Assembly (NCBI GenBank): GCA_016932115.1
Contig: JAFGDM010000081.1
Location: 1-47,797 of the forward strand
DNA: 47,797 nt
Source of the DNA: Deltaproteobacteria bacterium
Lineage (GTDB): Bacteria; Desulfobacterota; DSM-4660; Desulfatiglandales; HGW-15
Reading direction: 5' to 3'
Part shown: positions 1-41,758 of the stretch, in pieces
Numbering within the stretch: the stretch's first letter is position 1
Layout of the letters: the number at the start of each line of letters is the position of its first letter
The notes under the pieces: generated by a model
Databases searched by the model: none
What the model was told of the DNA's origin: nothing
Seen by the model: the letters and a program-made list of their open reading frames with translations, nothing else
Made by a program: the position numbers and the translations under genes

Positions 1-38
1 CTCCGCCCGCCTCACCCGTTGCCCGAAGCATAACACGG

Positions 39-126
39 CGATGTGGCTTCTTCGTTTTTGAGTTTTAAGAGGGACCCCCATGCTCGGGGCCGCCGACTTC
101 GGCATTTCAAACAGCTAAATTGTTAC
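39..126 (+). repeat. Copy A of an 88-nt intergenic repeat (partner at 23247-23334)
   Basis: Ungapped hand alignment with 23247-23334 gives about 79/88 identical bases in the same orientation. Contains an imperfect hairpin, ATGCTCGGGGCCGCCGACTTCGGCAT, at 80-105. Confidence 0.7.
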
Positions 127-324
127 AAAAACCCTATGTGTTCCAGTCATCCTGTTTATCACCACGGAAGCATCGGATACGAGGAACCCGGTTGCCCAAT
201 TGTATATCACCGGTCACAGACACTCGGAATTTCTAAACCCATTTCAAATAATAAACAATAATTTTTCCCTTTCAACCTCTCAATTGCCTTATTACGCTCT
301 TAAAAACCGGCTGCCCACTTAGCC

Positions 325-353
325 TTGACACAGAAGAAATCTTTCTCTATAGT
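325..353 (+). promoter_or_regulatory. sigma70-type promoter upstream of the dsrE-like gene
   Basis: TTGACA (325-330), 17-nt spacer, TATAGT (348-353). Lies about 130 nt upstream of ATG 484. Confidence 0.5.
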
Positions 354-483
354 CCCACCCTAACCGAAGGAAATGCCCAACCACTCGGCATTTTGAAATC
401 GCCATGGCGGAGGACTCCCTAGAGGTTCTACAGAAGCTTTACTCCTTAGGAAGAAATGATTTTGCCGGGGGCAACCAAATTTA

Positions 484-861
484 ATGGGAAAATACCTGAT
501 AATCGTTAACAATGGCCCTGAAGATCCAAACAGAGCAACGGTACCTTTTCTTACCGCCAGGGCATTGGTAGAAAAAGGGCACGAGGTGGCTATTTGGCTT
601 TTTAACAACTCGGTCTATCTAGCATTCGAGGGCGTTGCAGAAAATGTTCAGGCTCCGGGCCTGCCTAATCTTGAGGACTTGATGCTTTTCCTTAGCATAA
701 CCAAGAAAATCCCCATTTTCATTGGAACGGCGTGCGCTATGGGACGGGGGCTGGTGAATGAAAATCACGAAGCCTCTGTCACTTTTTTTTGCGGTGAGCT
801 TGGTATGCCTTCCCAATTAGCCGATCTCATTGTAGAGGCTGACAATGTAATCGGCTTTTAG
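484..861 (+). CDS. DsrE/DsrF-like sulfur-relay family protein
   Basis: 125-aa ORF. The MGKYLIIVNNGPEDPNRATVPFLTARALVEKGHEV... start and the conserved-Cys segment IGTACAMGRG are typical of the DsrE fold. Called from motif memory. Confidence 0.65.
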   Translation: MGKYLIIVNNGPEDPNRATVPFLTARALVEKGHEVAIWLFNNSVYLAFEGVAENVQAPGLPNLEDLMLFLSITKKIPIFIGTACAMGRGLVNENHEASVTFFCGELGMPSQLADLIVEADNVIGF

Positions 862-1008
862 CTCTTTTCGGAAAAATAGTGTTTTGTCATTCTCAGCAGA
901 ATTTTGCCGGTTGACTTTGCCTTAAAAACAAGTTATGAGATCGCATATTATTGTTATAATAACTTTTTATCCACTGTTTCCGTCAGCTACAAGGAGTTGA
1001 AGGAGGAA

Positions 1009-2307
1009 ATGCCTATGGCAGATGAAGCGTTGGAGTTGAGCGAACTTAAAGGAGAATTCAGGAAGAAAGTCAATGAGCTTTTACCTGAGGGAAATCTGAA
1101 TCTCTGCTTCACCTGTGGTACCTGTGCCAGCGGTTGTCCGGCTACCGGACTCGAGAACATGGACCCAAGAAAATTTGTCAGGATGATAGCGCTGGGTCTT
1201 GATGATGAGGTAACGAGCACACCCTGGGTGTGGATGTGCAGCATGTGTCAGCGTTGTATCTATGCCTGCCCCATGAATGTTGATATCCCCCGGATGGTAT
1301 ACCTTGCTCGCCAGGCATGGCCGCGTGAGGAAAGGCCTAAAGGGATCCTCGGTTCATGCGATATGGCTCTCAGGAACGACAGTTGCAGCGCCATGGGAGC
1401 GTCGCCTGAGGATTTTCAGTTTGTTGTAGAAGACGTGGCGGAGGAAGTTAGAGAAAACCATCCCGGATTCGAGACGCTCCAGGCCCCGATAGACAAAGAG
1501 GGCGCTTATTTTTTTCTCAACCAGAATTCAAGAGAGCCGGTGACGGAGCCGGATGAAATGATCCCTCTGTGGAAGATTCTCCACCTTGCCGGAGCAGACT
1601 GGACCTATGGCTCCAAGGGGTGGGGCGGAGAAAACTACTGTATGTTTCTGGCTGATAGTGATGCCTGGGAACACATCGTTCGTACGAGCATAAAGCAGGC
1701 CGAAGATCTAGGGTGTAAGGTTTATCTCAATACCGAGTGAGGCCACGTGACCTTCGCAGTCCTGGAAGGACTGAAAAAATTTGGAATCAAGACCGACCTG
1801 GAAATTGCAAGCATTTATCAATACTATGCCAAATGGATCAGGGAGGGAAAATTAAAGGTTAATTCGGACTGGAACAAAGATCTAAAGATAAAATTCACGG
1901 TTCAGGATCCGTGTCAGATCGTCCGAAAAAGCTATGGTGACCCTGTAGCGGAAGATTTACGCTATGTTGTCAGATCCGTTGTCGGGGATGAAAATTTTAT
2001 TGATATGACACCTAACAGGTCCAACAATTATTGTTGTGGTGGTGGCGGTGGATATCTGCAATCCGGTTATGTTGAAGCACGTCATCAGTATGGGAAGGTC
2101 AAATTTGACCAGATCGTTGCTACAGGGGCCGATTATTGCGTTGCCGCATGCCATAACTGTCACGCCCAGATTCATGATCTGGCGGAGCATTTTGAAGGTA
2201 AATACCATACTGTCCACCTGTGGACTTTGATTTGCCTCGCCATGGGAGTTCTAGGTGAAAACGAGCGTACATATTTGGGTCCCGATCTGGCGGAGGTGGG
2301 GCTCTGA
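1009..2307 (+). CDS. HdrD/GlpC-like Fe-S oxidoreductase (ferredoxin domain plus two cysteine-rich CCG-type domains), read through in-frame UGA 1738-1740 as selenocysteine
   Basis: Track ORFs 904-1740 and 1747-2307 share one frame and are separated only by TGA-GGC-CAC. The N part has CFTCGTCASGCP and CSMCQRCIYACP. The C part has DPC...NNYCCGGGGGY. The likely start is ATG 1009 or 1015, after AGGAGG at 1001-1006. A hairpin begins 16 nt after the UGA. Confidence 0.75.
1757..1773 (+). promoter_or_regulatory. Putative bacterial SECIS hairpin for UGA 1738
   Basis: CAGTCC-TGGAA-GGACTG: 6-bp stem and 5-nt loop, starting 16 nt after the UGA. Confidence 0.55.
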
Positions 2308-2337
2308 GTTTGATACCGATAGGCTTTTCATAGTTAA

Positions 2338-2366
2338 ATCCCGCCCTGTTCAGGCGGGATTTTTTT
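2338..2366 (+). terminator. Rho-independent terminator, possibly bidirectional, between the convergent operons
   Basis: ATCCCGCC-CTGTTCA-GGCGGGAT followed by TTTTTT, with an A-run on the 5' side. Confidence 0.7.
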
Positions 2367-2471
2367 CGGCTACAGGTTCCCTGAGAAATAAAGGGTAAGA
2401 GCCATGTGAAAGCGACCCCCCGGGCCTGATGCCGGCGGTTTTTTCAAAAAGCTGAAACGTTACCCCGCTTT

Positions 2472-3314
2472 TTAATACTCCGGCGGCATCCGCTTGAGCT
2501 GAGCCAAGGAAAAAACCGGCCCATCTTTGCACACATACTGATCTCCAATGTTGCACCGTCCGCAAATGCCGATTCCGCACTTCATGCGCATTTCCAGGGA
2601 TAGAATGATTTTCTCCGCGGGGAACCCCAGTTTTTCCAGCACGGGCTGGGTAAACTTGATCATGATCGGCGGCCCGCACACAATGGCAAAGGCGTCATCC
2701 GCGCTCTTGATTTTTTGCTCTGTAACCGTGGGGACGAACCCTACGTTGTATTTCCAGTTTGGATCATCGGTGGCGTCCACGGTGATGTGCATGTTGATGT
2801 CGTCGCGCTGTTCCCATGCTGCGAGTTCATCCTTGTATAAAAGCATGCCGGGGTTCCGGGCTCCATACACAACGGTTATATCCTTGAATCGCGGCCGGTT
2901 GTCCGGGTGGATCATATAGACAATGCTGGAGCGCAGGGTGGTGAAGGCAAAACCGCCCCCTATAATCACCACGTTTTTCCCTTCCATCTCCTCCCAGGGA
3001 TACCAATTTCCCAAGGGGCCGCGAATGCCCATCACCTCTCCCTCTTTCATGTTGTGGAGATAATTAGTTACCTGACCGACCTTATTCACCGTGAAGGTGA
3101 CAACCCCCCCCTCCGTAGGGGAAGAAGCAATACCGATGGGGATCTCGCCTTTTCCGGCAATGGAAAGCTCCGCAAACTGGCCCGGAATATAGGAAAACTT
3201 TTTTTCATCTTCCGGATCCAGAAAAACGAACCTGAAGGTTTTCAAATTTCGGTCTTCAGTCTCCGTGGTAATCTGATCGATACGAACAGGATAAGGCAAA
3301 TAAGGGTTGTGCAT
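2472..3314 (-). CDS. FAD/NAD(P)H-binding oxidoreductase with C-terminal [2Fe-2S] (FlxA / sulfhydrogenase gamma / AsrB / PyrK-like)
   Basis: 280 aa. The start resembles a ferredoxin-reductase-type barrel. There is a GGGFAF nucleotide-binding stretch and a C-terminal MKCGIGICGRCNIG...CKDGP cysteine cluster. Confidence 0.75.
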   Translation of the reverse strand: MHNPYLPYPVRIDQITTETEDRNLKTFRFVFLDPEDEKKFSYIPGQFAELSIAGKGEIPIGIASSPTEGGVVTFTVNKVGQVTNYLHNMKEGEVMGIRGPLGNWYPWEEMEGKNVVIIGGGFAFTTLRSSIVYMIHPDNRPRFKDITVVYGARNPGMLLYKDELAAWEQRDDINMHITVDATDDPNWKYNVGFVPTVTEQKIKSADDAFAIVCGPPIMIKFTQPVLEKLGFPAEKIILSLEMRMKCGIGICGRCNIGDQYVCKDGPVFSLAQLKRMPPEY

Positions 3315-3401
3315 GAAGCTAATACTCCTTTTTCAGGTTGGACTCTTGGAGGGAATCTTTTTTAGCCATTGCTTCCTCCAATGCTCCGCTGTTCCTCTTC
3401 T

Positions 3402-4439
3402 TCAATACCCGTTCATCAATCCAAACACTTCTCGAATATCGATATTAACGGGGCAGAACTGAACACATCGGCCGCAACCGACACATGCCACGCCGTTTTC
3501 GTACTTGTCCACGTAATATTTCAGCTTGTGCATGAAACGTTGTCTGACCCTTTGGAGTTTTTTGTCTCGGGGATTGTGACCTGATCCGTGAAGGGTGAAA
3601 ATCGGAAACATGCATGCGTCCCAGTTGCGTATCCTGTCTCCTTCTTTGCCGCAGGTTTCATCCTGGATGTCGAAACACCAACAGGTCGGGCAGAGGTAGG
3701 TGCAGGTTCCACAGTTGATGCAGGCAAAGGAGATCCTTTCCCAGAAGTGGGCGCTGAATAACTCATTCACGACCTTGTCTTTAAGACGATCGGTGGGTAC
3801 AGTGGAGGAAATTTTTTTCTCCGAGCCTTTGGCCAGCTCCTGCGCCTGCTTGAGGACGGTGCCGTCCGCTTTCTTTCCGCTTTTGAGCGCTCCCAGAAGA
3901 GCTTCGCCTTTGGTCGTGAGGCTCTTTACCAGAAAACGATCGCCCAGATCCACCATGAGCGCATCCAGCCCTTTCTCGCAGAATGGGCCGCTTCCAACGG
4001 ATGTGCAAAAGCAGGACGCGCAAGGCTCGTTGCAGCCAAAGCCGACAATTGTGGTCGCATTCATTCGCTGAATCCACCAGGGATCACGGTATTGGGGGTT
4101 GTCGAAATTGATGCGAACCAACTGGAAGGCAAGGGCGTCGCAGGGCCGGATTCCCACAATGGCCTGCGTTGAGAAATCTTTGGGTGTTTCCTTGATGATG
4201 TGGGCGTCTTCTTTGCTATCATCCAAAGAGTATTCGAACATCCGCTCCGATTGAGGGAAAATTATGCTTTTCGCAGAGAGCCTTGTGTTCTGGAAGTCGA
4301 AACTCGGTTTGGCGCCGTTTTTCAGCGGCCTGAAATTGTGGAAGTCCCCTTCTTTTACGGGTACAAAAACCTTATAAGCGCTTTGCAGCTCTTTAAGTGC
4401 CTCGGTCCATTCTTCCTTGGTAAATGATTTCTCAAGCAT
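3402..4439 (-). CDS. 4Fe-4S dicluster protein, FlxB / sulfhydrogenase beta / AsrA-like
   Basis: 345 aa with CINCGTCTYLCPTCWCFD and CVGCGRCVQFCPVNIDI motifs. Confidence 0.7.
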   Translation of the reverse strand: MLEKSFTKEEWTEALKELQSAYKVFVPVKEGDFHNFRPLKNGAKPSFDFQNTRLSAKSIIFPQSERMFEYSLDDSKEDAHIIKETPKDFSTQAIVGIRPCDALAFQLVRINFDNPQYRDPWWIQRMNATTIVGFGCNEPCASCFCTSVGSGPFCEKGLDALMVDLGDRFLVKSLTTKGEALLGALKSGKKADGTVLKQAQELAKGSEKKISSTVPTDRLKDKVVNELFSAHFWERISFACINCGTCTYLCPTCWCFDIQDETCGKEGDRIRNWDACMFPIFTLHGSGHNPRDKKLQRVRQRFMHKLKYYVDKYENGVACVGCGRCVQFCPVNIDIREVFGLMNGY

Positions 4440-4551
4440 AGTGCTTATCCTAATGACTTTTTGAGGACGCTAAAAACGACACACGGTACAGCCTGCTCAA
4501 CGGAAGTAGTCTCTGTTTCTAAGACCGAGCGGCATAAGACAGAGCACCGTG

Positions 4552-5502
4552 TCATTTTACAAACTCATTGTAATCGTCCACCCGGTAAACATCGAGGGGC
4601 GGCCGCTGATCGGCACGAACGCCCGCTTCCCACCCGAAGTACTCGAAGACATCCTTGTTGAGTTTCTTGGTGAACTGCCTCATCGGTATACCGACCGGGC
4701 AAACCCTTTCACAGGCACCACAGTCGGTGCATCGTCCCGCGCAGTGGTATGCTCGCAGGAAGTGGAAGGTCATGGTATCCACAGGATCAATGCTTTTTCC
4801 TACCCATTGGGGACGGGATTCATCCACAAAACAGGTGGGGCAGTAACAAAGGGGACAGGCGTTCCTGCATGCATAGCAGCGGATGCAGGATGCAATGAGC
4901 TGAGTGAAAAATTGACGTTTTTCATCAGCACTCTTTTTTTCAATACCCTCCACGTCCTTGAAGGGGTTGACCCCTTCCAATTCCGGCACCGGATCGGCGA
5001 CCATCTCGTCGTATTCCACCGGGTTGCGATGGACGCATACGGCGCAATTGGTTCTCAGGAAATCCTTTTTTTGGAAAACTTCCTGGAAACCCTTTCCGCT
5101 CACTGTGAATGATTCGCCTTCTTCTCCCACTTCCAGAATTTCCCGATTTCCCACGGCCCTTTTCACGGCCCGATGATCAATGATACCCCTGCAGGGTATC
5201 CCGACGATATAGAGCTGTTCTCGCTTGATCTGGTTTTCAATGATATGGGTCACGATGTTGCGGGAGTTGCAGCCGTTCGCCACGAGGCCGATACGGTCGG
5301 TGCGCCCGGTCAGGTAGTTACAAAGATTCAGCCCGCAATGGCTGTCCCAATGCAGAAAGTCCACTTCGGCTGGATCCTTAATCAGCACAGGCTCATTCAT
5401 CATGGCCACAGTGCCTTTCCTGTACCCGATAAAAACATCCACCGTGCCTTTTTCCAAAAGCTTTCGAGCGATCTCTCTGATTTTCCGGGTATATTCAAAC
5501 AT
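4552..5502 (-). CDS. Fe-S protein, FlxC-like (paralog of the 41759-42886 product)
   Basis: 316 aa with CIRCYACRNACPLCYCPTCF and CTDCGACERVCPVGIPM. Its start ATG overlaps the mvhD stop (TAATG at 5500-5504). Confidence 0.6.
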   Translation of the reverse strand: MFEYTRKIREIARKLLEKGTVDVFIGYRKGTVAMMNEPVLIKDPAEVDFLHWDSHCGLNLCNYLTGRTDRIGLVANGCNSRNIVTHIIENQIKREQLYIVGIPCRGIIDHRAVKRAVGNREILEVGEEGESFTVSGKGFQEVFQKKDFLRTNCAVCVHRNPVEYDEMVADPVPELEGVNPFKDVEGIEKKSADEKRQFFTQLIASCIRCYACRNACPLCYCPTCFVDESRPQWVGKSIDPVDTMTFHFLRAYHCAGRCTDCGACERVCPVGIPMRQFTKKLNKDVFEYFGWEAGVRADQRPPLDVYRVDDYNEFVK

Positions 5503-5939
5503 TACGCCACCTCAGCTCTTTTCTTGACAAGATAGGCCGCAGGCCCGGCGTCTTTGACCGAATGGAAGATTTCTGTCGCCACCTCCACGAATTTGGTAGC
5601 TTCAGCGGAGGAAATCCAGGAAAAATGAAGCCTTCCCGGCTCCAGTCCGATATGTTCCAGAAGGTTTTTGAGGAGAGCGAACTTGCGTCTTGCGTAATAA
5701 TTACCTTCCAGGTAATGGCAGTCTCCGGGGTGTCACCCGGAAACCCACACCCCGTCGGCACCGTGCCGGAAAGCGGCCAGGATGAGTTTGGGGCTTACCC
5801 GGGCGGAGCAGGGCACGCGAATGACACGGATATTGGAAGGGTACTGCAAACGGCTGACTCCGGCCAGGTCCGCCGCTCCGTAACTGCACCAGTTGCAAAG
5901 GAATGCGGTAATTTTCGGCTGCCAATCGTTCATGGGCAT
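5502..5939 (-). CDS. mvhD: MvhD/FlxD-type [2Fe-2S] protein, selenocysteine form (UGA at 5735-5733)
   Basis: Track ORF 5733-5939 ends ...[12 protein letters not shown]. Hand translation continues in frame as [44 protein letters not shown]... to TAA at 5504-5502. The Cys paralog at 41309 reads [28 protein letters not shown], which places the UGA exactly on a conserved Cys. Confidence 0.85.
5700..5716 (-). promoter_or_regulatory. Putative bacterial SECIS hairpin for UGA 5735-5733
   Basis: Minus strand ATTACC-TGGAA-GGTAAT: 6-bp stem and 5-nt loop, starting 16 nt after the UGA. Confidence 0.55.
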
Positions 5940-6029
5940 TCACTCCGTTTTATCGATTTCCGGTTTTCTATCTTGGAACCTCTCTTTTCCTATGAGCTTC
6001 CGCCACGAGCCTTAGGCCTTGAGGCGTTT

Positions 6030-9000
6030 TCACATTTCATTGATCATCGCCATGATCTGTCCTTCCTCAAAGCCTTTGAGGTTGAGAGCCCCGGAGCGGC
6101 AAGAAGAGACGCAAAGTCCGCAGCCCTTGCAAAGGACGGGGTTGATTTCCGCCTTTCCCGCAAAAGGGCCTTTTGGAATAAAAGACGGAGCGGAGTAAGG
6201 GCAGATCTCCACGCACACGCCGCAGCTACTGCAGACCGCCGGATTGGCGTAAGCAACCATGCCGCTTACGGAGATGTTCTTTCTGGCCAAAAGGGTGACG
6301 GCCCTGGAAGCGGCGGCTTGGGCCTGCGCCACCGACTCGTCGATGGGTTTCGGGTAGTGAGCCATTCCGCAAAGAAAAACGCCGTCCGTGGCAAACTGTG
6401 AGGGGCCTAGCTTCGCATGGGCTTCCACAAAGAATCCGTCCTCGCTCATGGGCACTTTGAAGAATTGGGCCAGTTTTTCGTCCTTGTAGGGAACGATGGC
6501 CGAAGCCAGGGTGAGCAGATCCGCCATGACTATGACAGGGCGCTGCAGCACATGATCCATCACCTCAATCTCGATGCCTTCCTTGCCGACTGTAACCCTC
6601 GGCTTTTGAGCACGGGAGAAGCGGATGAAAATGACGCCCGCTTCTCGCGCAGCTCTGTATAGGAGTTCGCGCTCCCCATAGGTGCGGATGTCCCGATTGA
6701 GAATGTACACGTCCATACCCGGGTTGATTTCCTTGAGATGGAGGGCGCTACCTATGGAGTGGGTGCAGCAGACCCTCGAACAGTAAGGCCTTTCCGGCTC
6801 CCGGGATCCCACGCACTGGATGAATACGGCACACTTGATGCGTTTAAGGGATGAATCTTGATCGATAAACTTGCGGTCCAGTTCCTGGTGCGTGAGGATC
6901 CGGGGATCTTTGCCGTAGAGATATTCCTCGGGTTTGTGTTCGTAGCATCCGGTAGCCAGCACCGCAATTCCGTGTTCGAGGGTCCCCTTTGTACCGCCGG
7001 CTTTAAAGGTGGATTTGAAGTTGCCCACAAAGCCCTCAACCTGCGTTAGCTCGGCGCCAAGATGGGTCTCGATATTTTTGTCACCCTGCACCGATGTAAC
7101 AAGGGTTTTCAGGTTTTCCTGGATATCTTCTCCCTGCCAGGTCTTATACAGGTTGATCGCTTGGCCTCCGAGAACCGGTTCGCGTTCGATAAGATCCACC
7201 TGGTAGCCCTGGTCGCTCAAGGTTTTTGCCGCGGCCATGCCGGATATGCCGCCGCCGATGACCAGGGCTCGCTGGTTGACGTCCAAGGCCGCTTCGGGAA
7301 GGCCTTCCATGAGGGCGACCTTGGCCGTTGCCATGCGCACCAGGTCTTTGGCCTTGACGGTTGCTTTCGAGGGACTTTCCTTATGGACCCACGAATCCTG
7401 GTTGCGGATGTTGGTCATTTCAAATAGATATTTGTTCAGCCCGGCGGCGACAAGGGTTTCCTGGAAAAGAGGCTCATGGGTCTTGGGCGTGCAGGCGGCC
7501 ACCACGATCCGGTTGAGGTTGTTGGCCTTGATCACTTGAGTCATGGCGTCCTGGGTATCCTGGGAGCAGGAGTAAAGGTTGTCCGCCACGTATTCTACAT
7601 AGGGCAAAGTCTTGGCATAGTCACGCACAGCCGGAACATCCACCACACTGCCTATGTTGATTCCACAATGGCACACAAAAACCCCGATCCGGGGTCTTTC
7701 TCCACGGGTGTCCTTTTGTTCGATCACTTCTTTCGTTTTGGTGAGCGTGTTTCTTGCGCTGCTCAGAAGGGCACCGGCCCGGGCGGCCGCAGAGCTCGCT
7801 TCGATAACCGACTGAGGAATGTCCTTGGGACCCTGAAAAGCGCCGCACACGTATATGCCTTCCTTGGATGTGGCCACAGGCGCAAAAGAGCCGGTGCGGC
7901 AAAAATGGGATTCCGTAAGGTCGATGCCGAGCTTTCCTGCCAGCTCCATAACCTCGGGGGAGCTTTCCAACCCGACGGAAAGGACGACCATGTCAAAGGT
8001 TTCTTTGTGAAGCGCACCGTCTTCCGTCGCATACCGGACGCTCAAATCCTCGGTTCCCGGAACCCCCTCGACTGTGTGCACACGGCACCGGATGAACCGA
8101 ACTCCGTGTTTTTCCCTGGCTGCGTCATAGTACCTTTCAAACTCCTTTCCGTGGGTCCGCATGTCCATGTAGAAGATGGCGCACTCCAGATCGGCTCCGG
8201 AATGCTCCTTGGCGATCACCGCTTCTTTGATGGCGTACATGCAGCACACGGAAGAACAGTAAGGGTGATCGGAGGGATGGATCTCCCTGGATCCCACGCA
8301 CTGGAGCCAGGCGATCTTCTTGGGCTCCTTGTGGTCCGACATCCGCGCCAGGTGTCCCATGGTCGGACCGGAAGCCGAAAGAATCCTTTCGAACTCCATG
8401 GATGTTACGACATTTGGAAGCCGGGCATAGTTGTATGTGTCATGCTTCGAGGGGTCGAAAGGCTGGAACCCGGGGGCCAGGATGATAGCGCCTACCTCAA
8501 GTTCGATGATCTCGTCCTTCTGTGTGTAATCGATGGCGCCCACCCCGCAAAACTCCGCGCAGATTTTGCACCCTCCTGTCTTGAAATGCATGCATTTGCT
8601 CCGGTCGATGGCCGGGATATTCGGGATAGCCTGCGCATAAGGGACGTAAATGGGCTTTCGGCCCTTCAGTCCCATATCGTACTCGGAAGGAATTTTCTTT
8701 ACAGCGTGCTTGCTGATGTCTTCCAGTTTGATGTGGCCTGTGGGGCAAACGGAAGCGCAGGCCCCGCAGCCCATACAGTATTCCGTCTGGATATGAAAAG
8801 GGGTGTCCACCTTCATTTCCGTGCCGCGGCCCGTCAGGCTTATGGCCGCATTGCCCATTTTCTCGCAGATCCGAGTGCACAGCCCGCAAAGAATGCAGTC
8901 GTCCTGTTCTTTCTTGAACCTTGGCTCTACGATCCCGTACTTTTTTGCAAGGTTTTTGAGAAGAGGGACATCAGGGCAACGGGCGAAGAGCAGTTCAACA

Positions 9001-9263
9001 ATCAGCTTGCGGCCTTTGCGGACGGCCTCAGAGTCGGTTTTGACCTCCATTCCTTCCCAAATGGGGTAGTTGCAGGCTGTCACAAAACGGGTCCGCCGCC
9101 CGTCAAAAAGCTCGACGGTGCAAAGGCGGCACATCCCGGCAGGCTCCAGGGCCTTGTGATAGCAAAGGGTCGGGATGTCGATCCCGTATTTCTGCGCAAC
9201 CTGCAGGATGTATTGGCCTTCTTCTCCCTGGACGGTCTTCCCATTCATCTTGAACGTAATCAT
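6030..9263 (-). CDS. Fusion protein: NuoG/HndD-type N-terminus ([2Fe-2S] plus 4Fe-4S motifs), then the C-terminal part of one HdrA FAD module, an HdrA N-terminal-type Cys domain, a second complete HdrA FAD module and a 2x[4Fe-4S] ferredoxin domain
   Basis: The real start is most likely MITFKMNGKTVQ at 9263. The track start at 9521 overlaps the nuoF-like gene. Motifs present: CYH...CRLC, CILCGLCTRIC, CMGCGACASVCP, KKIPSEYDMGLKGRKPIY, CVGSREIHPSDHPYCSSVCC, RIGVFVCHCGINIG...VVAACTPKTHE, VIGGGISGMAAA, CVGSREPERPYCSRVCC, CSSCGVCVEICP and CKGCGLCVSSC. Confidence 0.8.
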   Translation of the reverse strand: MITFKMNGKTVQGEEGQYILQVAQKYGIDIPTLCYHKALEPAGMCRLCTVELFDGRRTRFVTACNYPIWEGMEVKTDSEAVRKGRKLIVELLFARCPDVPLLKNLAKKYGIVEPRFKKEQDDCILCGLCTRICEKMGNAAISLTGRGTEMKVDTPFHIQTEYCMGCGACASVCPTGHIKLEDISKHAVKKIPSEYDMGLKGRKPIYVPYAQAIPNIPAIDRSKCMHFKTGGCKICAEFCGVGAIDYTQKDEIIELEVGAIILAPGFQPFDPSKHDTYNYARLPNVVTSMEFERILSASGPTMGHLARMSDHKEPKKIAWLQCVGSREIHPSDHPYCSSVCCMYAIKEAVIAKEHSGADLECAIFYMDMRTHGKEFERYYDAAREKHGVRFIRCRVHTVEGVPGTEDLSVRYATEDGALHKETFDMVVLSVGLESSPEVMELAGKLGIDLTESHFCRTGSFAPVATSKEGIYVCGAFQGPKDIPQSVIEASSAAARAGALLSSARNTLTKTKEVIEQKDTRGERPRIGVFVCHCGINIGSVVDVPAVRDYAKTLPYVEYVADNLYSCSQDTQDAMTQVIKANNLNRIVVAACTPKTHEPLFQETLVAAGLNKYLFEMTNIRNQDSWVHKESPSKATVKAKDLVRMATAKVALMEGLPEAALDVNQRALVIGGGISGMAAAKTLSDQGYQVDLIEREPVLGGQAINLYKTWQGEDIQENLKTLVTSVQGDKNIETHLGAELTQVEGFVGNFKSTFKAGGTKGTLEHGIAVLATGCYEHKPEEYLYGKDPRILTHQELDRKFIDQDSSLKRIKCAVFIQCVGSREPERPYCSRVCCTHSIGSALHLKEINPGMDVYILNRDIRTYGERELLYRAAREAGVIFIRFSRAQKPRVTVGKEGIEIEVMDHVLQRPVIVMADLLTLASAIVPYKDEKLAQFFKVPMSEDGFFVEAHAKLGPSQFATDGVFLCGMAHYPKPIDESVAQAQAAASRAVTLLARKNISVSGMVAYANPAVCSSCGVCVEICPYSAPSFIPKGPFAGKAEINPVLCKGCGLCVSSCRSGALNLKGFEEGQIMAMINEM

Positions 9264-9285
9264 GGGGCAAATCCTTTTCTCTTCC

Positions 9286-11187
9286 CTACTTAACCACAAT
9301 GGCGTCAAACTTACAGGTGTCGTAGCAAATCCCGCACTTGATGCATTTTTCCTGGTCCAGTGTGTGAAGTTTTTTCTTCTCGCCGGTGATGGCTTGCTGT
9401 GGGCACTTGAGGGCGCACACGTGACACCCGGTGCAAGCTTTTTCATCCACCTCGTAATGAAACAGGGGTTTGCAAACGCCTGCAGGGCATTTCTTATCGT
9501 AAATGTGGGCCTCGTACTCATCTCGGAAGTAGAGAATCGTGGTAAGCACCGGATTTGGCGCTGAGGTGCCCAGCCCGCACAGGGAGAACTTCTGAATCAT
9601 GCTTCCCATTTCTTCAAGAAGCTCAATGTCTCCTTCCTTCCCCCGGCCTTCGCAAATGTCCGTGAGCACATCGAGCATCTGCTTGATTCCCTCTCTGCAG
9701 GGGGTGCACTGGCCGCACGATTCTCCTTTGAGAAAATCCAGAAAGTAGCGGGCCAAATCCACCATGCAGGTGCCCTGATCCATCACGATCATGCCGCCGG
9801 ATCCCATCATGGAACCCACCTTGGTGAGCTCATCGTAACCCACCTGGAGATCCAGGAAGGCCTCAGGGATGCACCCTCCCGAAGGGCCTCCTGTCTGGAC
9901 GGCCTTGAATTTACGTTTCTTGGGAATTCCTCCTCCCATCTCAAAGATGATCTCGCGCAAGGTGGTTCCCATCGGTACTTCGACCAAGCCTGTATTCTTC
10001 ACCTTGCCCACCAGGCTGAAAACCTTTGTTCCTTTGCTGTACTTCGTTCCCATGCTGCTGAACCAGTCGGCTCCCTTGAGCATGATGACGGGGACATTGG
10101 CATAGGTTTCCACATTGTTGAGGTTGGAGGGGCCGTCCCTGAAGCCCTTTTCCACGGTGTGGACATACTTGGCTCTGGGCCTTCCGACATTTCCCTCGAG
10201 GGAGGCCATGAGGGCCGTAGACTCGCCGCAAACAAAGGCGCCTGCGCCGGTCGAAATCTTGACGTGGAAACCGAAATCCGACCCGGCGATGTTGTCCCCG
10301 AGAAGTCCAAAATCCTCCGCTTGCTTCAGGGCCGACACAAGGCGTTTAACGGCCAGAGGATATTCGTTGCGCACGTAAATGAAACCCTGAGAGGACCCAA
10401 TCGCATAAGCCGCGATAAGCATTCCCTCCAAAACACTGTGAGGGTCGCCCTCCAGAACACTCCTGTCCATGTAGGCGCCGGGATCTCCCTCATCGGCGTT
10501 GCAGATGACATAGCGCTCTCCCGGGTGTTTGCGACAGCTCTCCCATTTGATGCCGGTGGGGAAACCTCCCCCGCCCCTTCCCCTCAGACCGGACTTCTTA
10601 ATGGTCGCAATGATCTCCTCATGTTTCATCTCAGCGAGGATGCGGACAAAAGCGAAATACCCGCCTCGCCCGATATACTCTTCTATGCTGTCAGGATCGA
10701 TGTAACCACAATTGCGCAAAGCGATTTTGATCTGATGAGCGTAAAAAGGGATTTCATCCAGGAAAGGGATTCCCTTGATGGGATTTACCTTTTCAAGCGG
10801 GTTAGGCCGATCCTCTTCAATGACGGATCTGGGGTCGCGCATCTGACCGAGAATCAATTTTTTGCTGAATGTTTCTTCCATGTAATCCTGGAATACATCC
10901 GGTAGTTTGTCCTCTGTCACACGTTTGTAGACGACCCTCGGTTTACCCTTGGCCAAAATCTCCACCAGGGGTTCTTCTTCACAAAAACCGATGCAGCCGG
11001 TCTGGCGGATTTCAATGGAATCACCGGCGGGATGCTCCTTCAGCGCCCTTTCAAGCGTTGCCCTGGCCCCTGCAGCGATCCCGCAAGAGGCCATGCCCAC
11101 GTTGACCTTGACGCCCTGCGGAAAGGAGAGCTTCTCGTTGAATTCTTCGCTGATCTTCTCCAGATCCTTTACAGATAAAATTCTCAT
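9286..11187 (-). CDS. NuoF/HndC/HydB-like NADH-binding FMN flavoprotein with an N-terminal thioredoxin-like domain and a C-terminal 2x[4Fe-4S]
   Basis: 633 aa with GRGGGGFPTG, ESCGQCTPCREG, CTGCHVCALKCP and CIKCGICYDTC. Confidence 0.85.
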   Translation of the reverse strand: MRILSVKDLEKISEEFNEKLSFPQGVKVNVGMASCGIAAGARATLERALKEHPAGDSIEIRQTGCIGFCEEEPLVEILAKGKPRVVYKRVTEDKLPDVFQDYMEETFSKKLILGQMRDPRSVIEEDRPNPLEKVNPIKGIPFLDEIPFYAHQIKIALRNCGYIDPDSIEEYIGRGGYFAFVRILAEMKHEEIIATIKKSGLRGRGGGGFPTGIKWESCRKHPGERYVICNADEGDPGAYMDRSVLEGDPHSVLEGMLIAAYAIGSSQGFIYVRNEYPLAVKRLVSALKQAEDFGLLGDNIAGSDFGFHVKISTGAGAFVCGESTALMASLEGNVGRPRAKYVHTVEKGFRDGPSNLNNVETYANVPVIMLKGADWFSSMGTKYSKGTKVFSLVGKVKNTGLVEVPMGTTLREIIFEMGGGIPKKRKFKAVQTGGPSGGCIPEAFLDLQVGYDELTKVGSMMGSGGMIVMDQGTCMVDLARYFLDFLKGESCGQCTPCREGIKQMLDVLTDICEGRGKEGDIELLEEMGSMIQKFSLCGLGTSAPNPVLTTILYFRDEYEAHIYDKKCPAGVCKPLFHYEVDEKACTGCHVCALKCPQQAITGEKKKLHTLDQEKCIKCGICYDTCKFDAIVVK

Positions 11188-11208
11188 TTTTCTGCCTCTT
11201 CCGGGCTT

Positions 11209-11706
11209 CTATTCGTAACGCTCCAAGGTTTTCGCCACTTGATCCGGGGACAGGCGGGCATGAACATCCTCATTGATCTTGACCACGGGCCCAAGACTGC
11301 AGCAGCCGATGCAGCGCACGGATTCAAGCGTAAAGGAACCGTCCTCAGTGGTTTGGCCGTTCGAGATGTGCAGGAGCTGCTCAATCTGTTCTTGGACTCG
11401 TTTGGCGCCCCTCACGTGGCAGGCCGTTCCGAGACAAACGGTAATGAGGTTTCGGCCTCTCGGTTCCAAGCTGAAGGTGGCGTAAAATGTGGCGATTCCA
11501 TAGATCCGGCTTAAGGGAACGCCGGTTTTTTCAGCGAGGTAGGCGAGGGCGGGTCTCGGAATGTAGTTATACCGGCCCTGAATCCCCTGAAGCATCATGA
11601 TTAGGTTTTCCTTGTCGCTGCCGTATGTTTCCTCGATGATTTTATCCATCTCGACATAATCCAGTTCCTCGGGAGAAGGGGCAATCGCAACGGGTTCCTT
11701 GTTCAT
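11209..11706 (-). CDS. NuoE/HndA-like thioredoxin-fold [2Fe-2S] protein
   Basis: 165 aa with CLGTACHVRGA ... CIGCCSLGPVV. Confidence 0.85.
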   Translation of the reverse strand: MNKEPVAIAPSPEELDYVEMDKIIEETYGSDKENLIMMLQGIQGRYNYIPRPALAYLAEKTGVPLSRIYGIATFYATFSLEPRGRNLITVCLGTACHVRGAKRVQEQIEQLLHISNGQTTEDGSFTLESVRCIGCCSLGPVVKINEDVHARLSPDQVAKTLERYE

Positions 11707-11719
11707 AAAGACATCCTCT

Positions 11720-12136
11720 TCACTGAGCCTCGCCGGATGATCCTGTGCGTTCTACCGCACCGGCCTCATACAAGACGGGACAGTTCTCAATGCAAACACC
11801 GCATCCGGTACAAAGATCCATATTGATGCTCCGGGCCCTTTTTCTTATCTTCACTTTAAAATGTCCAGGGCTTCCTTCGACAGACTCAAGATCCGAATAG
11901 GTAATGAGTTCAATATTGAGATGCCGGCCGACCTCGACCAGTTTAGGGGAAATGATTCACATCGCACAGTCATTGGTGGGAAAAGTTTTATCCAATTGGG
12001 CCATAACCCCGCCAATGGCCGGGGATTTTTCCAGGAGATACACGTAATATCCGGAATCCGCCAGATCAAGGGCGGATTGCATCCCTGCGATGCCTCCACC
12101 CACAACAAGGACTGAACCTTTTATAGTGTTTGACAT
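11720..12136 (-). CDS. hdrA: HdrA N-terminal fragment (FAD-binding GGGIAG, DCAM-U motif, first CxxCxxCxxxCP), with selenocysteine at UGA 11959-11957. Not present in the ORF track.
   Basis: Hand translation from ATG 12136 (RBS GGAGAAATAAGG) gives [126 protein letters not shown]...Q, ending at TGA 11722-11720. It aligns by eye to both HdrA paralogs in this window. Confidence 0.75.
11924..11941 (-). promoter_or_regulatory. Putative bacterial SECIS hairpin for UGA 11959-11957
   Basis: Minus strand CTGGTCG-AGGT-CGGCCGG: 7-bp stem (two G-U pairs) and an AGGU loop, starting 15 nt after the UGA. Confidence 0.5.
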
Positions 12137-12455
12137 CCTTATTTCTCCTTTGTGTTCATCTTAACAGGTATCGCTTAGAGCTTTCTTATGGCAAGGCACT
12201 TGAAGTTGTCATCCGGATTGAGCCTTCTCGTGCATGATTCTCAGGCCCGAAGAAATTGGATCAGCTGATGCGTCGACAAATCGACATCCGTGATCGAGTA
12301 AGGGTCGGGCTTTACAAGGAAGGGGTTTGGGGATCTGTCCTTCCCTACGGAACCTGTATATCAATGGAATACAGTCGAGGGTAAAGATAGCCGTGGGAAG
12401 GCGAGTCTGTCAATGGTTTTTTGCTCATTCTGTGTGGGAAAGAATCAGGAAAGGG

Positions 12456-12489
12456 CTCTCCCAACCTCCGGATGCGGAAGCCGGGAGAG
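12456..12489 (-). terminator. GC-rich stem-loop just downstream of the dual-REC gene (possible weak terminator or attenuator)
   Basis: Minus strand CTCTCCCGG-CTTCCG-CATC-CGGAGG-TT-GGGAGAG, 10 nt after stop 12499-12501. Followed by CCCTTTCC rather than a clean U-tract. Confidence 0.3.
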
Positions 12490-12498
12490 GATGGGAAT

Positions 12499-13821
12499 CT
12501 ATGCAGCCAAACGAACCGCGTTTTCTGTTACCTTACGGATCTCATCAGGCGTGAAGGGCTTGGGGAGGTAATCGACTGCCCCCAACCTGGCGCTCTCTTT
12601 GGCTGTTTCGATGCTGGCATAGCCGGTGATGATGACAACGGGCGTCTGCGGGCTCTTTTTTCTAATAGTTTGGAGAAGTTCCAGCCCCTGCACGCCGGGT
12701 ATCCTGAGGTCGAGTAGCACCAGTCTGTAAGCTTTCTCCTGGATGCTCCGCAGCGCTTCTTCTTTGGTCATCGCCTGATCTACGGTGAAACCTTTTTTTG
12801 TCAGGATCTTGCGAATATTGTTGTTGACGGCCGCTTCGTCGTCGATAACCAGAATGTCTTGCCCGGTCACTTCGTCCCTTGTAAAGGGAATATCCACATC
12901 AATGATTCGCCTCCTTTCGGCTGCCATTGCGGGTGGAAGCACTCTACGAGGGGCCCTGAGAGGAAAAACGACATCCATGACTTGCCTTCTTTTAGCCAGC
13001 GCCATTTTTTCCTTGAGTTCCTCATAAGGCACAAAGACAACCCCGTCGCCTTGGAGGTGCATGAGGTATTCAGGGCCTGTGATTGAAGCGACCTCCTCAT
13101 AGCTGAAAGGCTGATCAATGCCGACAAGCTTCTTGGGGTCGAATGTTTTTTCGCCCCTGCTTTCTTCCTTGGCCCTCGCGGCATGTTTGGCTTGCGGGCA
13201 TTCGTTCGCCTTAAGGCCCGCCTTGCAGGTGGCGCCGAGTTTCTTGAAAATTTCGCAAACCTTATGCCCTACGGCGCAATAGTACTCGAGAGTTTCCGGC
13301 GAAGGCATCTCCACAACGGGCATGTCCGAGGGGCCCAGCGTATCTGCGTAGGCCTCGCCCGCGAATTCGGCTACCTCCTGCCGATCGAAAGGGATGTCGA
13401 GATCGATGACATCGATCGTCTTTTTCACCTTTTCGGATACCGGCATCTCTTGCAGCTCTCCGGACAAAACCTTGTCCACTGTCTCCCGTACTTCTTTGGG
13501 CGTGAAAGGCTTGGGAATATAATCCAGAGCGCCCAGCCGGATGGCTTTCATGGCCGTATCGGTAGAGGCATAAGCGGTCATGATGATTACCTTGGTCAGA
13601 GGCCACTGTTCTTTGACAAGCTTCAAGAGCTCGAGGCCGTTTTTACCGGGCATCAAAATGTCGGATATGAGCAGGGAATAGGACTCGTTCGCCATCAGTT
13701 CAAGGGCGTCTCTGGCGCTGAAGGCCTGAGTCACTTCATAATTTTCCTTGGTGAGTATCTTACGCACATTGTCACAAATTCCCTTTTCATCGTCGACTAC
13801 CAGAATCTTTTTTGTTTCCAT
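12499..13821 (-). CDS. Dual response-regulator receiver protein (REC, about 200-aa Cys-containing linker, REC) with no recognisable output domain
   Basis: 440 aa. REC1 is KKILVVDDE...DILMPGKNG...KPF. REC2 is ILVIDDE...LDLRIPGVQG...KPF. The linker carries C-X6-C-X9-C-X8-C and three D-x-PF-x3-EV repeats. AGGAGG RBS precedes ATG 13821. Confidence 0.8.
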   Translation of the reverse strand: METKKILVVDDEKGICDNVRKILTKENYEVTQAFSARDALELMANESYSLLISDILMPGKNGLELLKLVKEQWPLTKVIIMTAYASTDTAMKAIRLGALDYIPKPFTPKEVRETVDKVLSGELQEMPVSEKVKKTIDVIDLDIPFDRQEVAEFAGEAYADTLGPSDMPVVEMPSPETLEYYCAVGHKVCEIFKKLGATCKAGLKANECPQAKHAARAKEESRGEKTFDPKKLVGIDQPFSYEEVASITGPEYLMHLQGDGVVFVPYEELKEKMALAKRRQVMDVVFPLRAPRRVLPPAMAAERRRIIDVDIPFTRDEVTGQDILVIDDEAAVNNNIRKILTKKGFTVDQAMTKEEALRSIQEKAYRLVLLDLRIPGVQGLELLQTIRKKSPQTPVVIITGYASIETAKESARLGAVDYLPKPFTPDEIRKVTENAVRLAA

Positions 13822-13878
13822 TATGTCCTCCTATTGGCGGTCGGAGCCGAGAAGATTAACGAAGTTAAATGCCATTGA

Positions 13879-13894
13879 AGCACATTGTGTGCCA
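13879..13894 (-). promoter_or_regulatory. sigma54-type (-24/-12) promoter upstream of the dual-REC gene
   Basis: Minus strand TGGCACACAATGTGCT, against consensus TGGCAC-N5-TTGC. GG and GC are at the correct spacing. Lies about 58 nt upstream of ATG 13821. Confidence 0.55.
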
Positions 13895-14250
13895 ACGGCG
13901 CTTTTTTCGGGTTAACATACTATTTATATTGAATTTATGAGTGATATCCTGTGTCAATCCTTATTGAATGTATATAAATCTTATACAGAAAAAAGTATGA
14001 CGAATAGGCGATGGAAGCCAGTGAAAAGGATAGGCAACTAAAAGCTCCTCTATCCTGAGAAGAAGGGCGTATTTGTAAGATAACTATTTGATAAAATTTA
14101 GTAAGTAAGGGATTTCCCATAAGCTGACAGCTCGGCCTTTCAGACGACAAGAGAAAACATACCTACGCATTGAAACGACTGGAGAACACAATTGGGGAAT
14201 AATCAGAATGGTGTATTAATTAATTATACATGGTATAATTTCTCTAAATT

Positions 14251-35955: not shown

Positions 35956-36218
35956 CCTAGGCGTGGAAATCGCGGCGGTAAATAGGGGACAACCTCTCAA
36001 GCTCAAAGCTGAGAGGGAGAATGCTGATCATATCCTGTCCGATAAATTGTATGATGCGTCACGACGATTTGATTCTTGGAAATCTAAAATGATGCGGAAA
36101 GTAAAATTCCTTATTTCGAATCTCCGTGTTTTTAGTAAATTGGTCAATTCGTGAAAATTATCGTTGAATATCGCTTTATTATGGAAAAGAATTTTTTAGA
36201 CACGGAATTGTAGGGAAA

Positions 36219-38180: not shown

Positions 38181-38183
38181 GAC

Positions 38184-41240: not shown

Positions 41241-41308
41241 GAGGGGTTCATAGACTTCAGAGCGCGGAGCAACAGCTCGTCAATGTGTAGTGGAGGAGGA
41301 AGATTTGC

Positions 41309-41734: not shown

Positions 41735-41758
41735 AAAGAACCTGAGAAGGAGAGGTAC

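Follow-up and report, generated by a model that had tools for sequence, protein, structure and literature searches.

An eight-gene Desulfobacterota operon with a divided HdrA dimer, predicted to join two kinds of electron-bifurcating module

Electron bifurcation is the means by which strict anaerobes make low-potential ferredoxin. The subject here is an operon in a stretch of 47,797 nucleotides (nt) from a Deltaproteobacteria bacterium (GenBank assembly GCA_016932115.1, contig JAFGDM010000081.1, positions 1 to 47,797), hereafter the window. Open reading frame (ORF) coordinates and translations confirm eight minus-strand ORFs at 2472-12136, which are labeled g1 to g8 in 5′ to 3′ order; L001 to L082 denote the relative loci with which the operon was compared.

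The eight genes and the divided HdrA

The genes, with product lengths in amino acids (aa), are as follows.

11720-12136, minus strand: g1, N-terminal fragment of the first HdrA (TrxR1) unit, 138 aa
11209-11706, minus strand: g2, NuoE/HydC/BamG-like [2Fe-2S] thioredoxin-like protein, 165 aa
9286-11187, minus strand: g3, HydB/BamH-type (Bfu) NuoF homologue, 633 aa
6030-9263, minus strand: g4, NuoG-N domain fused to HdrA parts, 1077 aa
5502-5939, minus strand: g5, MvhD/FlxD-type [2Fe-2S] adaptor, 145 aa
4552-5502, minus strand: g6, FdhB/FrhB-like iron-sulfur protein ('flxC-like'), 316 aa
3402-4439, minus strand: g7, sulfhydrogenase-beta (HydB/ShyB)/AsrA-like iron-sulfur protein ('flxB-like'), 345 aa
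2472-3314, minus strand: g8, FAD/NAD(P)-binding [2Fe-2S] protein of the HydG/ShyC/AsrB/PyrK type ('flxA-like'), 280 aa

The original prediction, made from the letters of this stretch, had described eight close same-strand genes, and the recomputed intergenic gaps from g1 to g8 (13, 21, 22, 90, -1, 112, and 87 nt) are identical to those it gave, the negative value reflecting overlap of the g5 stop with the g6 start (TAATG). The start of g4 is at MITFKMNG, and a longer ORF (6030-9521) was not adopted. A scan of the intergenic gaps for intrinsic-terminator-like sites found none there; together with gaps of 13-112 nt and the one start/stop overlap, this supports a single operon. The gene labels of the original prediction agree with domain calls from Pfam, NCBIfam, and PDB sequence searches.

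The HdrA content is distributed over g1 and g4. g1 matches positions 137-257 of the NCBIfam HdrA2 model (E 4e-47) and contains the beta-alpha-beta motif for flavin adenine dinucleotide (FAD), GGGIAG, a selenocysteine (Sec) position, Sec60, and the first CxxCxxCxxxCP motif of the inserted ferredoxin domain. g4 has three parts.

8799-9263, minus strand: g4 residues 1-155, fused NuoG/HydA/HoxU/BamI-type N-terminal domain with [2Fe-2S] and ferredoxin-type motifs
7704-8798, minus strand: g4 residues 156-520, remainder of the first HdrA unit
6030-7703, minus strand: g4 residues 521-1077, second HdrA unit

The N-terminal domain of g4 matches PF13510 (E 3e-19) as well as HoxU and FeFe-hydrogenase A6 N-terminal models, and residues 18-182 match PDB 9mqx_A, a 'NuoG-like protein' (E 6.5e-42). 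Residues 156-520 hold the second half of the inserted ferredoxin domain, the C-part of TrxR1, a CVGSRE..YCSSVCC cluster motif, and Lys346. The second unit is made up of the HdrA N-terminal domain, a TrxR2 part in which a separate FAD motif (GGGISG) occurs, and, at the C terminus, a ferredoxin domain with 2x[4Fe-4S]; it is without an inserted ferredoxin domain and has G838 in place of the Lys. In a PDB sequence search, g4 residues 157-453, 522-751, and 930-1074 fall on residues 240-516, 2-232, and 503-646 of HdrA (5odc_A), respectively.

Residues 3-130 of g1 align to residues 14-153 of an unsplit paralogue encoded in the window (38184-41240), and g4 residues 158-1077 to its residues 123-1015 (E 9e-141); g1 is likewise collinear with residues 1-136 of the unsplit 1014-aa L032 protein (Desulfosudis oleivorans). 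Since these two unsplit homologues are collinear with the pieces, g1 and g4(157-520) constitute a single HdrA unit, with the break inside the inserted ferredoxin domain. The break is at the first CxxCxxCxxxCP motif of that domain, which stands on both sides of it (g1 109-119 and g4 163-173). The comparison of most relevance is with BamE of class II benzoyl-CoA reductase, a fused, permuted HdrA dimer in which the first FAD has Lys280 at N5 and bifurcates, whereas the second has Gln768 and does not (bioRxiv 10.64898/2026.04.10.717634). g4 has two TrxR-like units with permuted N- and C-terminal domains, the first 138 residues being in a separate gene, and the arrangement is, as judged by homology, that of a BamE-type fused HdrA dimer in which nuoE, nuoF, and a nuoG-N domain interrupt the inserted ferredoxin domain. 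K346 of g4 corresponds to K409 of HdrA and is invariant in 10 homologues, whereas position 838 is G, E, or D in homologues, and the unsplit L032 protein has K279 in unit 1 and E771 in unit 2. The bifurcation-hallmark Lys is thus retained in the first HdrA unit only.

These assignments alter the original prediction in two respects. It had treated the hdrA-N product as a small HdrA in its own right, which is instead the N-terminal FAD piece of a unit continued in g4; the duplicated HdrA module that it proposed stands as to the presence of two units, which are reread as a fused dimer of the BamE type with the Lys in the first only. A separate proposal, that g1 is a pseudogene fragment or a stand-alone small flavoprotein, was ruled out, as g1 lies upstream of nuoE in nearly all split loci and provides exactly the segment absent from g4.

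The in-frame UGA of g1 (codon 60, 11959-11957) is at the HdrA Sec/Cys position (FPTNDCAMU; family motif FPTNDCxxU), and that of g5 (codon 69, 5735-5733) is at the MvhD Sec/Cys position (VSGUHPGDCHY; family motif GUxxGxCHY). Folding gives a 7-bp hairpin, with a loop beginning with G, ~23 nt past each of these UGA codons, resembling a selenocysteine insertion sequence (SECIS).

11924-11941, minus strand: SECIS-like hairpin of g1, 7-bp stem, loop AGGU
5700-5716, minus strand: SECIS-like hairpin of g5, 7-bp stem, loop GGA

The hairpin-to-UGA spacing is the same for all three such UGA codons in the window, the third being in the HdrD-like gene described below. The codon aligned to the g1 UGA is a stop in 71 of 80 relative matches and Cys in the remainder; for the g5 UGA the corresponding count is 52 of 63, again with Cys in the remainder. 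Whole-segment folding z-scores for the SECIS regions were not significant. Because of the shared hairpin position and the Sec/Cys alternation in relatives, both UGA codons are read here as selenocysteine codons, in agreement with the two Sec residues originally proposed.

Public gene calls stop at the Sec codon (L081 7119-7298, 13352-13552, and 13634-13783; L082 13545-13751), the truncated calls of g1 and mvhD being 59-aa and 66+49-aa fragments. The HdrA N-terminal piece and MvhD consequently look like tiny orphan ORFs, so hiding the split architecture, and this annotation error is systematic.

The remaining subunits supply two pyridine-nucleotide modules, one NuoEF-type and one FlxA/HydG-type, as the original prediction held. 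g2 matches PF01257 (E 4e-48) and the NuoE/HoxE models. g3 has an N-terminal extension, a core for flavin mononucleotide (FMN) and NADH, an N3-type [4Fe-4S] region, and a C-terminal 2x[4Fe-4S] ferredoxin domain with cluster motifs at 585 and 615. In PDB sequence searches it aligns near end-to-end with the B chains of bifurcating enzymes (E 1e-196 to 1e-212), i.e. 7t2r_B (20-594 of 597; NiFe-Bfu), 7q4v_B/8a6t (HydB), 8oh5_B (StnB), 9n5u_B (NfnB), and 9mqx_B; complex I NuoF covers only residues 167-566. g3 is, by homology, HydB-type rather than a plain complex-I NuoF, and with its HydC/NuoE partner g2 the core of the HydABC/Bfu family is present.

g5 matches PF02662 (E 4e-53) and the VhuD model and has an FlpD domain only. 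g6 matches 7bkb_E, 8rvu_E, and 9t1s_M, the FdhB subunits of Fdh-Hdr complexes (E 6e-24 to 5e-20), matches FrhB_FdhB_N weakly, and has two CxxCxxCxxxCP motifs. g7 matches PF17179 (E 2e-32), the ShyB, HydB, and AsrA models (E 1e-40 to 1e-44), and PDB 9nez_B (E 6e-37). g8 has the complete set of PF00970 (FAD_binding_6), PF00175 (NAD_binding_1), and PF10418 ([2Fe-2S]) and matches NCBIfam PRK08345 (E 6e-70) and PDB 9nez_C (E 1e-54). The closest matches of g7 and g8, 9nez_B and 9nez_C, are the beta and gamma subunits of Pyrococcus sulfhydrogenase I. No CCG domain was found by Pfam in g1-g8.

Relatives and genomic surroundings

A scan of one genome per species gave 80 loci, all from Desulfobacterota-type metagenome-assembled genomes or isolates; two close metagenome contigs were added, and the window proteins were mapped on all. 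The gene-neighborhood comparison for which the original prediction had called found the same eight-gene order in no fewer than 14 Desulfobacterales genomes or contigs (counted at species level) for which enough flank was available, so the arrangement is conserved and not due to chance. The NuoG-N::HdrA junction is spanned by ~15-17 clusters (50% identity) in a library of 1.8 billion representatives. The following architectures were distinguished.

Type A: the same eight genes, mostly with three regulators upstream (L002, L006, L012, L013, L018, L019, L020, L025, L027, L029, L070, L071, L081, L082)
Type B: g1-nuoE-nuoF-g4, then hdrC and hdrB, without mvhD (L003, L005, L008, L010, L017)
Type C: unsplit HdrA dimer, then mvhD-g6-g7-g8 (L032 and about 15 others)
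Type D: unsplit HdrA dimer with an in-frame Fer4_20 + Pyr_redox_2 insert (GltD/NfnB-like, 'HdrL'), then mvhD-g6-g7-g8 (L054 and others)
Other: core with mvhD and hdrD (L024)
Other: core with mvhD and fdhA-fdhB (L026)

The GltD/NfnB-like insert was found in L036, L051, L052, L054-L057, L064, L068, L075, and L080, and in type D it is in the same inserted ferredoxin domain that is broken in the window's HdrA. Of 41 loci that bear g8, 29 (types A, C, and D) have a canonical dsrC (PF04358, E 6.5e-36, both C-terminal Cys residues present) as the gene directly after it, and in 4 others, which are Syntrophobacterales-type, hdrD is in this position.

In most Desulfobacterales relatives, the flxA-like gene is followed by a block of dsrC, YjbQ/UPF0047, NirDL/AhbAB-like siroheme decarboxylase, and nitrilase-like genes (L002, L006, L012, L013, L018-L020, L025, L027, L029, L032, L034, L037, and others); all of these genes are missing from the window. 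Paralogous sets often lie in tandem (L082 17643-23234, L047 13478-19845, L024, and L033). In L082 a second g1-nuoE-nuoF-g4 set comes immediately past the eight genes, and in L047 a split core is followed by an unsplit HdrA dimer with mvhD-g6-g8, the g5 and g8 of L047 being 85-86% identical to those of the window. L047 suggests that the window operon could derive from deletion or recombination between two such tandem neighbors. In L046 (7893-8249; a Desulfatibacillum sp. metagenome-assembled genome), nuoF-g4 lies directly past the double-receiver regulator with no space for g1 or nuoE; either these pieces are encoded elsewhere or the locus is degenerate.

Upstream of the operon are three regulatory genes, assigned by NCBIfam and Pfam, and a candidate promoter ~250 nt upstream of g1, found by consensus scan alone.

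15680-17170, minus strand: PAS histidine kinase
14251-15774, minus strand: sigma-54-dependent response regulator
12499-13821, minus strand: double-receiver response regulator
12384-12413, minus strand: candidate sigma-70-type promoter, TTGACA-18-TATCTT

The same regulator set is upstream of the operon in L001, L011-L013, L018, L020, L025, L027, L029, L071, L081, and L082. The double-receiver regulator, always positioned between the sigma-54 regulator and g1, has a linker of ~190 residues with a Cys-rich stretch (CAVGHKVCEIFKKLGATCKAGLKANEC) and lacks any recognized output domain; a role in redox or metal sensing is conceivable. Although the sigma-54 activator is conserved, a search of the minus strand at 12137-12498 found no sigma-54 site (TGGCACG-N4-TTGCW, up to 3 mismatches), and an Rfam scan of 1-14000 at E up to 1 gave zero matches, including to SECIS or riboswitch models.

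Convergent with g8, across a 164-nt gap, is a gene for an HdrD-like protein, and a second Hdr locus lies further away in the window.

484-861, plus strand: DsrE/DsrF-family gene, 125 aa (PF02635, E 3e-10), just upstream of the HdrD-like gene
1009-2307, plus strand: HdrD/HmcF/TmcB/DsrK-like gene, 2x[4Fe-4S] domain and CCG domain
34735-42886, plus strand: second Hdr locus (QmoC-like, HdrA, unsplit BamE-like, FrhB-like), comprising the next four genes
34735-35955, plus strand: QmoC-like membrane protein
36219-38180, plus strand: full-length HdrA without MvhD
38184-41240, plus strand: unsplit BamE-like fused HdrA dimer, 1018 aa
41759-42886, plus strand: FrhB/FdhB-like iron-sulfur protein

The HdrD-like protein matches HmcF (E 3e-53), DsrK (E 7e-34), and PF02754 (CCG), and within the first cysteine-rich region its gene has an in-frame UGA (1738-1740, NTE-U-GH) followed by a SECIS-like hairpin. 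An HdrD 69% identical to it is near two BamE-like clusters in L067. The unsplit BamE-like paralogue of the second Hdr locus retains Lys in both units (K290 and K780).

The original statement that no hdrBC or CCG subunit is present in cis thus holds for the transcription unit; it does not extend to the neighborhood, where the HdrD-like CCG gene is 164 nt downstream on the opposite strand, and sister architectures carry hdrCB or hdrD. The adjacent hdrD was rejected as a fixed partner, since its adjacency is not conserved, and is kept as a candidate trans partner.

The window DNA is supported by contigs of ~25x from a sediment metagenome, and 98% of sampled words are found in DNA run X1. At the window edge (1-467), word depth in this run is ~1100 versus ~25 elsewhere, and variants occur at positions 72-96, which suggests a multi-copy element or one that is widely shared; no Rfam family match was obtained.

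Predicted electron path and competing explanations

The gene order, domain identities, split, motif conservation, and conserved synteny are well supported. The proposal favored here, to which a probability of about 0.5 is assigned, is that the operon encodes one soluble complex of ~344 kDa per protomer joining two kinds of electron-bifurcating module, its assembly, path, substrates, and direction all being predicted. The first module, HdrA-type, would be the BamE-type dimer of g1 and g4, the first unit of which would be bifurcation-competent (Sec60, Lys346). The second, HydBC/Bfu-type, would be an NADH/ferredoxin module made up of g2, g3, and the NuoG/BamI-like N terminus of g4, in which g3 would contribute FMN, the NADH site, and a ferredoxin-binding C-terminal domain. 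With its NuoG-N part fused to the split ferredoxin domain, this module would be hard-wired to the HdrA domain that bears the low-potential output clusters in methanogen Hdr and benzoyl-CoA reductase. The third, an NAD(P)H module, would consist of g8, g7, and g6 linked through the MvhD selenoprotein g5. In the complexes 7bkb and 8rvu, Fdh is linked to Hdr by its subunit FdhB; because g6 is FdhB-like and the g5/g6 start and stop overlap, g5-g8 may be placed at the mid-potential donor port, which is occupied by Mvh hydrogenase or FdhAB in methanogen Hdr.

In methanogen Hdr, the donor (Mvh or Fdh) enters via MvhD, the high-potential electron exits via HA4 to HdrC/B, and the low-potential electron exits via HA3, HA5, and HA6 to polyferredoxin (PMC13580544). 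In benzoyl-CoA reductase, BamGHI feeds E1/E2 (in the C-terminal ferredoxin domain), with BamF, as input, and electrons reach BamD via E4 and BamBC via E3/E5/E6 (bioRxiv 10.64898/2026.04.10.717634). In the proposed complex, NAD(P)H would be oxidized at g8 and electrons would pass via g7, g6, and g5 to the bifurcating FAD. From there the low-potential electron would travel via the ferredoxin domain and NuoG-N into the HydBC-type module, exchanging with ferredoxin and NAD(H), and the high-potential electron would leave via the E4/HA4-like cluster; its acceptor would be a CCG protein whose gene lies elsewhere, here perhaps the adjacent HdrD-like selenoprotein, from which it would go on to DsrC or another disulfide. 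The whole chain may run in reverse. No partner for the HA4/E4 port is encoded in the operon.

Several observations weigh against this proposal. There is no CCG subunit in the operon, the neighboring hdrD is on the opposite strand, and its adjacency is absent from every other locus of the same architecture; the dsrC neighbor of the relatives is absent from the window. Three metatranscriptomes from the same study yield only short, 90-95% identical homologue pieces. The HydBC-type module of benzoyl-CoA reductase feeds the port formed by MvhD and the C-terminal ferredoxin domain rather than the inserted ferredoxin domain, so the arm assignments here could be permuted; the placing of HA5/HA6 in the inserted ferredoxin domain, based in part on the 2017 HdrABC-MvhAGD structure, is provisional. 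Low-potential electrons would enter a module that itself divides electrons between NAD+ and ferredoxin, without a clear energetic rationale, and the donor at g8 may be either NADH or NADPH.

A transhydrogenase-like function, raised in the original prediction, is possible. In its fullest form, which is conceivable but not probable, the complex would be a thiol-independent transhydrogenase of the Nfn/Stn kind, with NADPH at g8 as the mid-potential third substrate and with no disulfide or DsrC partner; electrons would pass via MvhD and HdrA, acting as wire or gate, to the HydBC-type module, which would reduce NAD+ and ferredoxin together, or operate in reverse. The absence of a CCG subunit from the operon and from 14 loci of the same architecture fits such a function, as does the closeness of g3 to StnB, NfnB of NfnABC, and HydB and that of g7/g8 to the NADPH-using sulfhydrogenase I beta/gamma subunits. 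Stn is likewise reported to fuse a NuoG-N domain to an NADPH-binding module (PMC10482914); it does, however, the same reaction without any HdrA. A mere wire would hardly require the strict conservation seen for Lys346, Sec60, and the HA4/E4-type cluster motif, and dsrC or hdrD directly follows g8 in 33 of 41 loci. In L026 the core and MvhD are followed by FdhA-FdhB, formate being another donor of about -400 mV, typical of Bfu enzymes, but these fdhAB genes precede a second nuoEFG set and so may belong to another enzyme.

It is quite improbable that the complex works in the direction of benzoyl-CoA reductase, i.e. that NADH and reduced ferredoxin are confurcated in g2/g3, feeding the HdrA flavin, with g6-g8 as a very low-potential reductase, e.g. 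of persulfide, polysulfide, or DsrC trisulfide. The main reason is that g8 is a complete NAD(P)-binding reductase; in addition, no tungsten/AOR-type or sirohaem catalytic subunit is in the window, MvhD is short (145 aa), unlike the long BamF that bridges BamI to BamE, and the port to which the NuoG-N domain is fused differs from the one used in class II benzoyl-CoA reductase. The proposal draws on the presence of counterparts for all of BamE, F, G, H, and I in the operon and of BamD in its neighborhood, the resemblance of g7/g8 to AsrA/AsrB and to sulfhydrogenase beta/gamma, which are linked to sulfur or sulfite reduction, the dsrC that follows g8 in most relatives, and the DsrE-family gene beside hdrD.

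Equally improbable is that two enzymes are merely co-transcribed, namely an NADH/ferredoxin-linked HdrA complex (g1-g5) and an NAD(P)H:acceptor oxidoreductase (g6-g8). The halves do occur apart (g1-g4 without g5-g8 in the hdrCB type, and g5-g8 with unsplit HdrA), and the larger gaps (90, 112, and 87 nt) are in the second half. However, the TAATG overlap ties MvhD to g6, and the pairing of mvhD and g6 is fixed, so this explanation is unlikely; g6-g8 directly follow mvhD in every retrieved locus, although the loci were picked by HdrA homology and are hence biased. FdhB-like subunits are known docking partners of MvhD/HdrA, and published work on Flx-Hdr, as cited in PMC5947623, regards FlxABCD-Hdr as a single complex. 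That the operon encodes a benzoyl-CoA reductase was rejected, as BamBC is absent.

Returning to the single complex with two kinds of bifurcating module, a broader proposal, tentative and on balance doubtful, is that it is a second, widespread case, after benzoyl-CoA reductase, of serial bifurcating modules, hard-wired by gene fission and fusion and acting with DsrC as an enzyme central to energy coupling in the sulfate respiration of Desulfobacterales; the low-potential arm of the HdrA flavin would feed, or be fed by, the HydBC-type NADH/ferredoxin module, and HdrL, with its GltD insert at this site in relatives, would have reached a similar solution in parallel. The operon suggests that serial coupling of HydBC-type and HdrA-type modules extends to more than one enzyme: many Desulfobacterales have a conserved, regulated gene set, usually beside dsrC, that brings together two bifurcating modules and an NAD(P)H module. 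Judging from the relatives, the inserted ferredoxin domain of HdrA is one site where different pyridine-nucleotide modules were grafted. If the complex forms as predicted, it would be a tractable system for studying the chaining of bifurcating modules and the balance that complete-oxidizing sulfate reducers keep between their pools of NADH, NADPH, ferredoxin, and DsrC. The finding matters mainly to the electron-bifurcation and sulfate-reduction fields.

Comparison with known systems

The original prediction is supported in its suggestion that the complex is flavin-based, bifurcating or confurcating, and wired in an unusual way. The composition has precedents, as published relatives include Hdr/Flox (PMC5947623), HdrL (PMC2702500), nuoEFG-mvhD-hdrA clusters, noted in Desulfotignum phosphitoxidans (PMC4046663), and BamDEFGHI. 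No description of an hdrA split by nuoEF/nuoG-N, or of the eight-gene operon, was found in the literature, coverage of which was incomplete, so an earlier account is possible.

BamDEFGHI of Geobacter metallireducens shares with the locus a fused HdrA dimer with the hallmark Lys in the first unit only, Sec in the HdrA and the MvhD-like subunit, a HydC/HydB-type NADH/ferredoxin module with a NuoG-N-like iron-sulfur subunit, an HdrD-like CCG protein nearby, and two different bifurcation modules per gene cluster. A 2026 preprint presents benzoyl-CoA reductase as the first complex reported to combine two bifurcation modules, HydBC-type and HdrA-type (bioRxiv 10.64898/2026.04.10.717634); 'Bam-Bfu' is discussed in Schut et al. 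2022 (PMC9304861). The differences are substantial. BamE is unsplit there, whereas two genes are present here; BamI is free and contacts the C-terminal ferredoxin domain, whereas its counterpart here is fused at the inserted one; and BamF is long (>100 residues longer, with MvhD, Rossmann, and winged helix-turn-helix regions), bridging BamI and BamE, compared with 145 aa for g5. The operon here adds the FdhB-like/HydB-like/HydG-like NAD(P)H module, and hdrD is on the opposite strand. No BamB tungsten/AOR-type subunit with BamC was found among the window's large ORFs or the flanks of loci of the same architecture.

The Flx equivalence of g5-g8 rests on the description of the Syntrophobacter fumaroxidans 'Hdr/Flox' (PMC5947623) and on domain content. 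FlxABCD-HdrABC of Desulfovibrio vulgaris (Ramos et al. 2015, cited from PMC5947623) appears on this basis to share an FlxA-type protein, two iron-sulfur proteins, and an MvhD-type FlxD beside HdrA; a genomic link to DsrC is also shared. By contrast, the gene order here is reversed (hdrA-mvhD-flxC-flxB-flxA), HdrBC (CCG) is in the Flx-Hdr operon but neither it nor HdrD is in the operon here, and HdrA here is a fused dimer, split, with the added NuoE/NuoF/NuoG-N module. The S. fumaroxidans 'Hdr/Flox' variant (Sfum_1969-1977) has HdrD instead of HdrBC and two hdrA genes (PMC5947623) and in these respects resembles L064, L065, and L077.

HdrL, a fusion of HdrA with a glutamate-synthase-type protein, and split Hdr genes have been noted in Desulfobacterium autotrophicum (PMC2702500). 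HdrL shares the HdrA backbone followed by mvhD and often an FdhB-like gene, and in L054 and others its pyridine-nucleotide module is inserted in the same inserted ferredoxin domain. It differs in that its insert is in-frame, GltD/NfnB-like (Fer4_20 + Pyr_redox_2), and ~30 residues further on, whereas the insert here is two whole genes and a fused domain, breaking the hdrA gene; no Fer4_20/GltD segment was found in g1 or g4 with Pfam or NCBIfam.

The HydABC/Bfu enzymes, including Stn (NfnABC) (PMC9304861; PMC10482914), share full-length matches of g2/g3 to HydC/HydB-type subunits and a NuoG/HydA-type N-terminal iron-sulfur domain fused to a third-substrate module. That module is a hydrogenase, a formate dehydrogenase, or a GltD domain in those enzymes, whereas here it would be a bifurcating HdrA dimer.

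The methanogen Mvh/Fdh-HdrABC complexes (5odc, 7bkb, 8rvu; PMC13580544) have in common with the locus the HdrA domain set, including Sec/Cys197 and Lys409, the MvhD adaptor, and an FdhB-like subunit on the donor side. They differ in that HdrBC is absent from the operon here, where the HdrA dimer is in one chain, in that the donor is H2 or formate in methanogens and a predicted NAD(P)H module here, and in that the output ferredoxin domain docks polyferredoxin in methanogens, whereas here it is fused to the NADH/ferredoxin module. Overall, the operon is a variant of the known Hdr/Flox, HdrL, and BamDEFGHI kinds.

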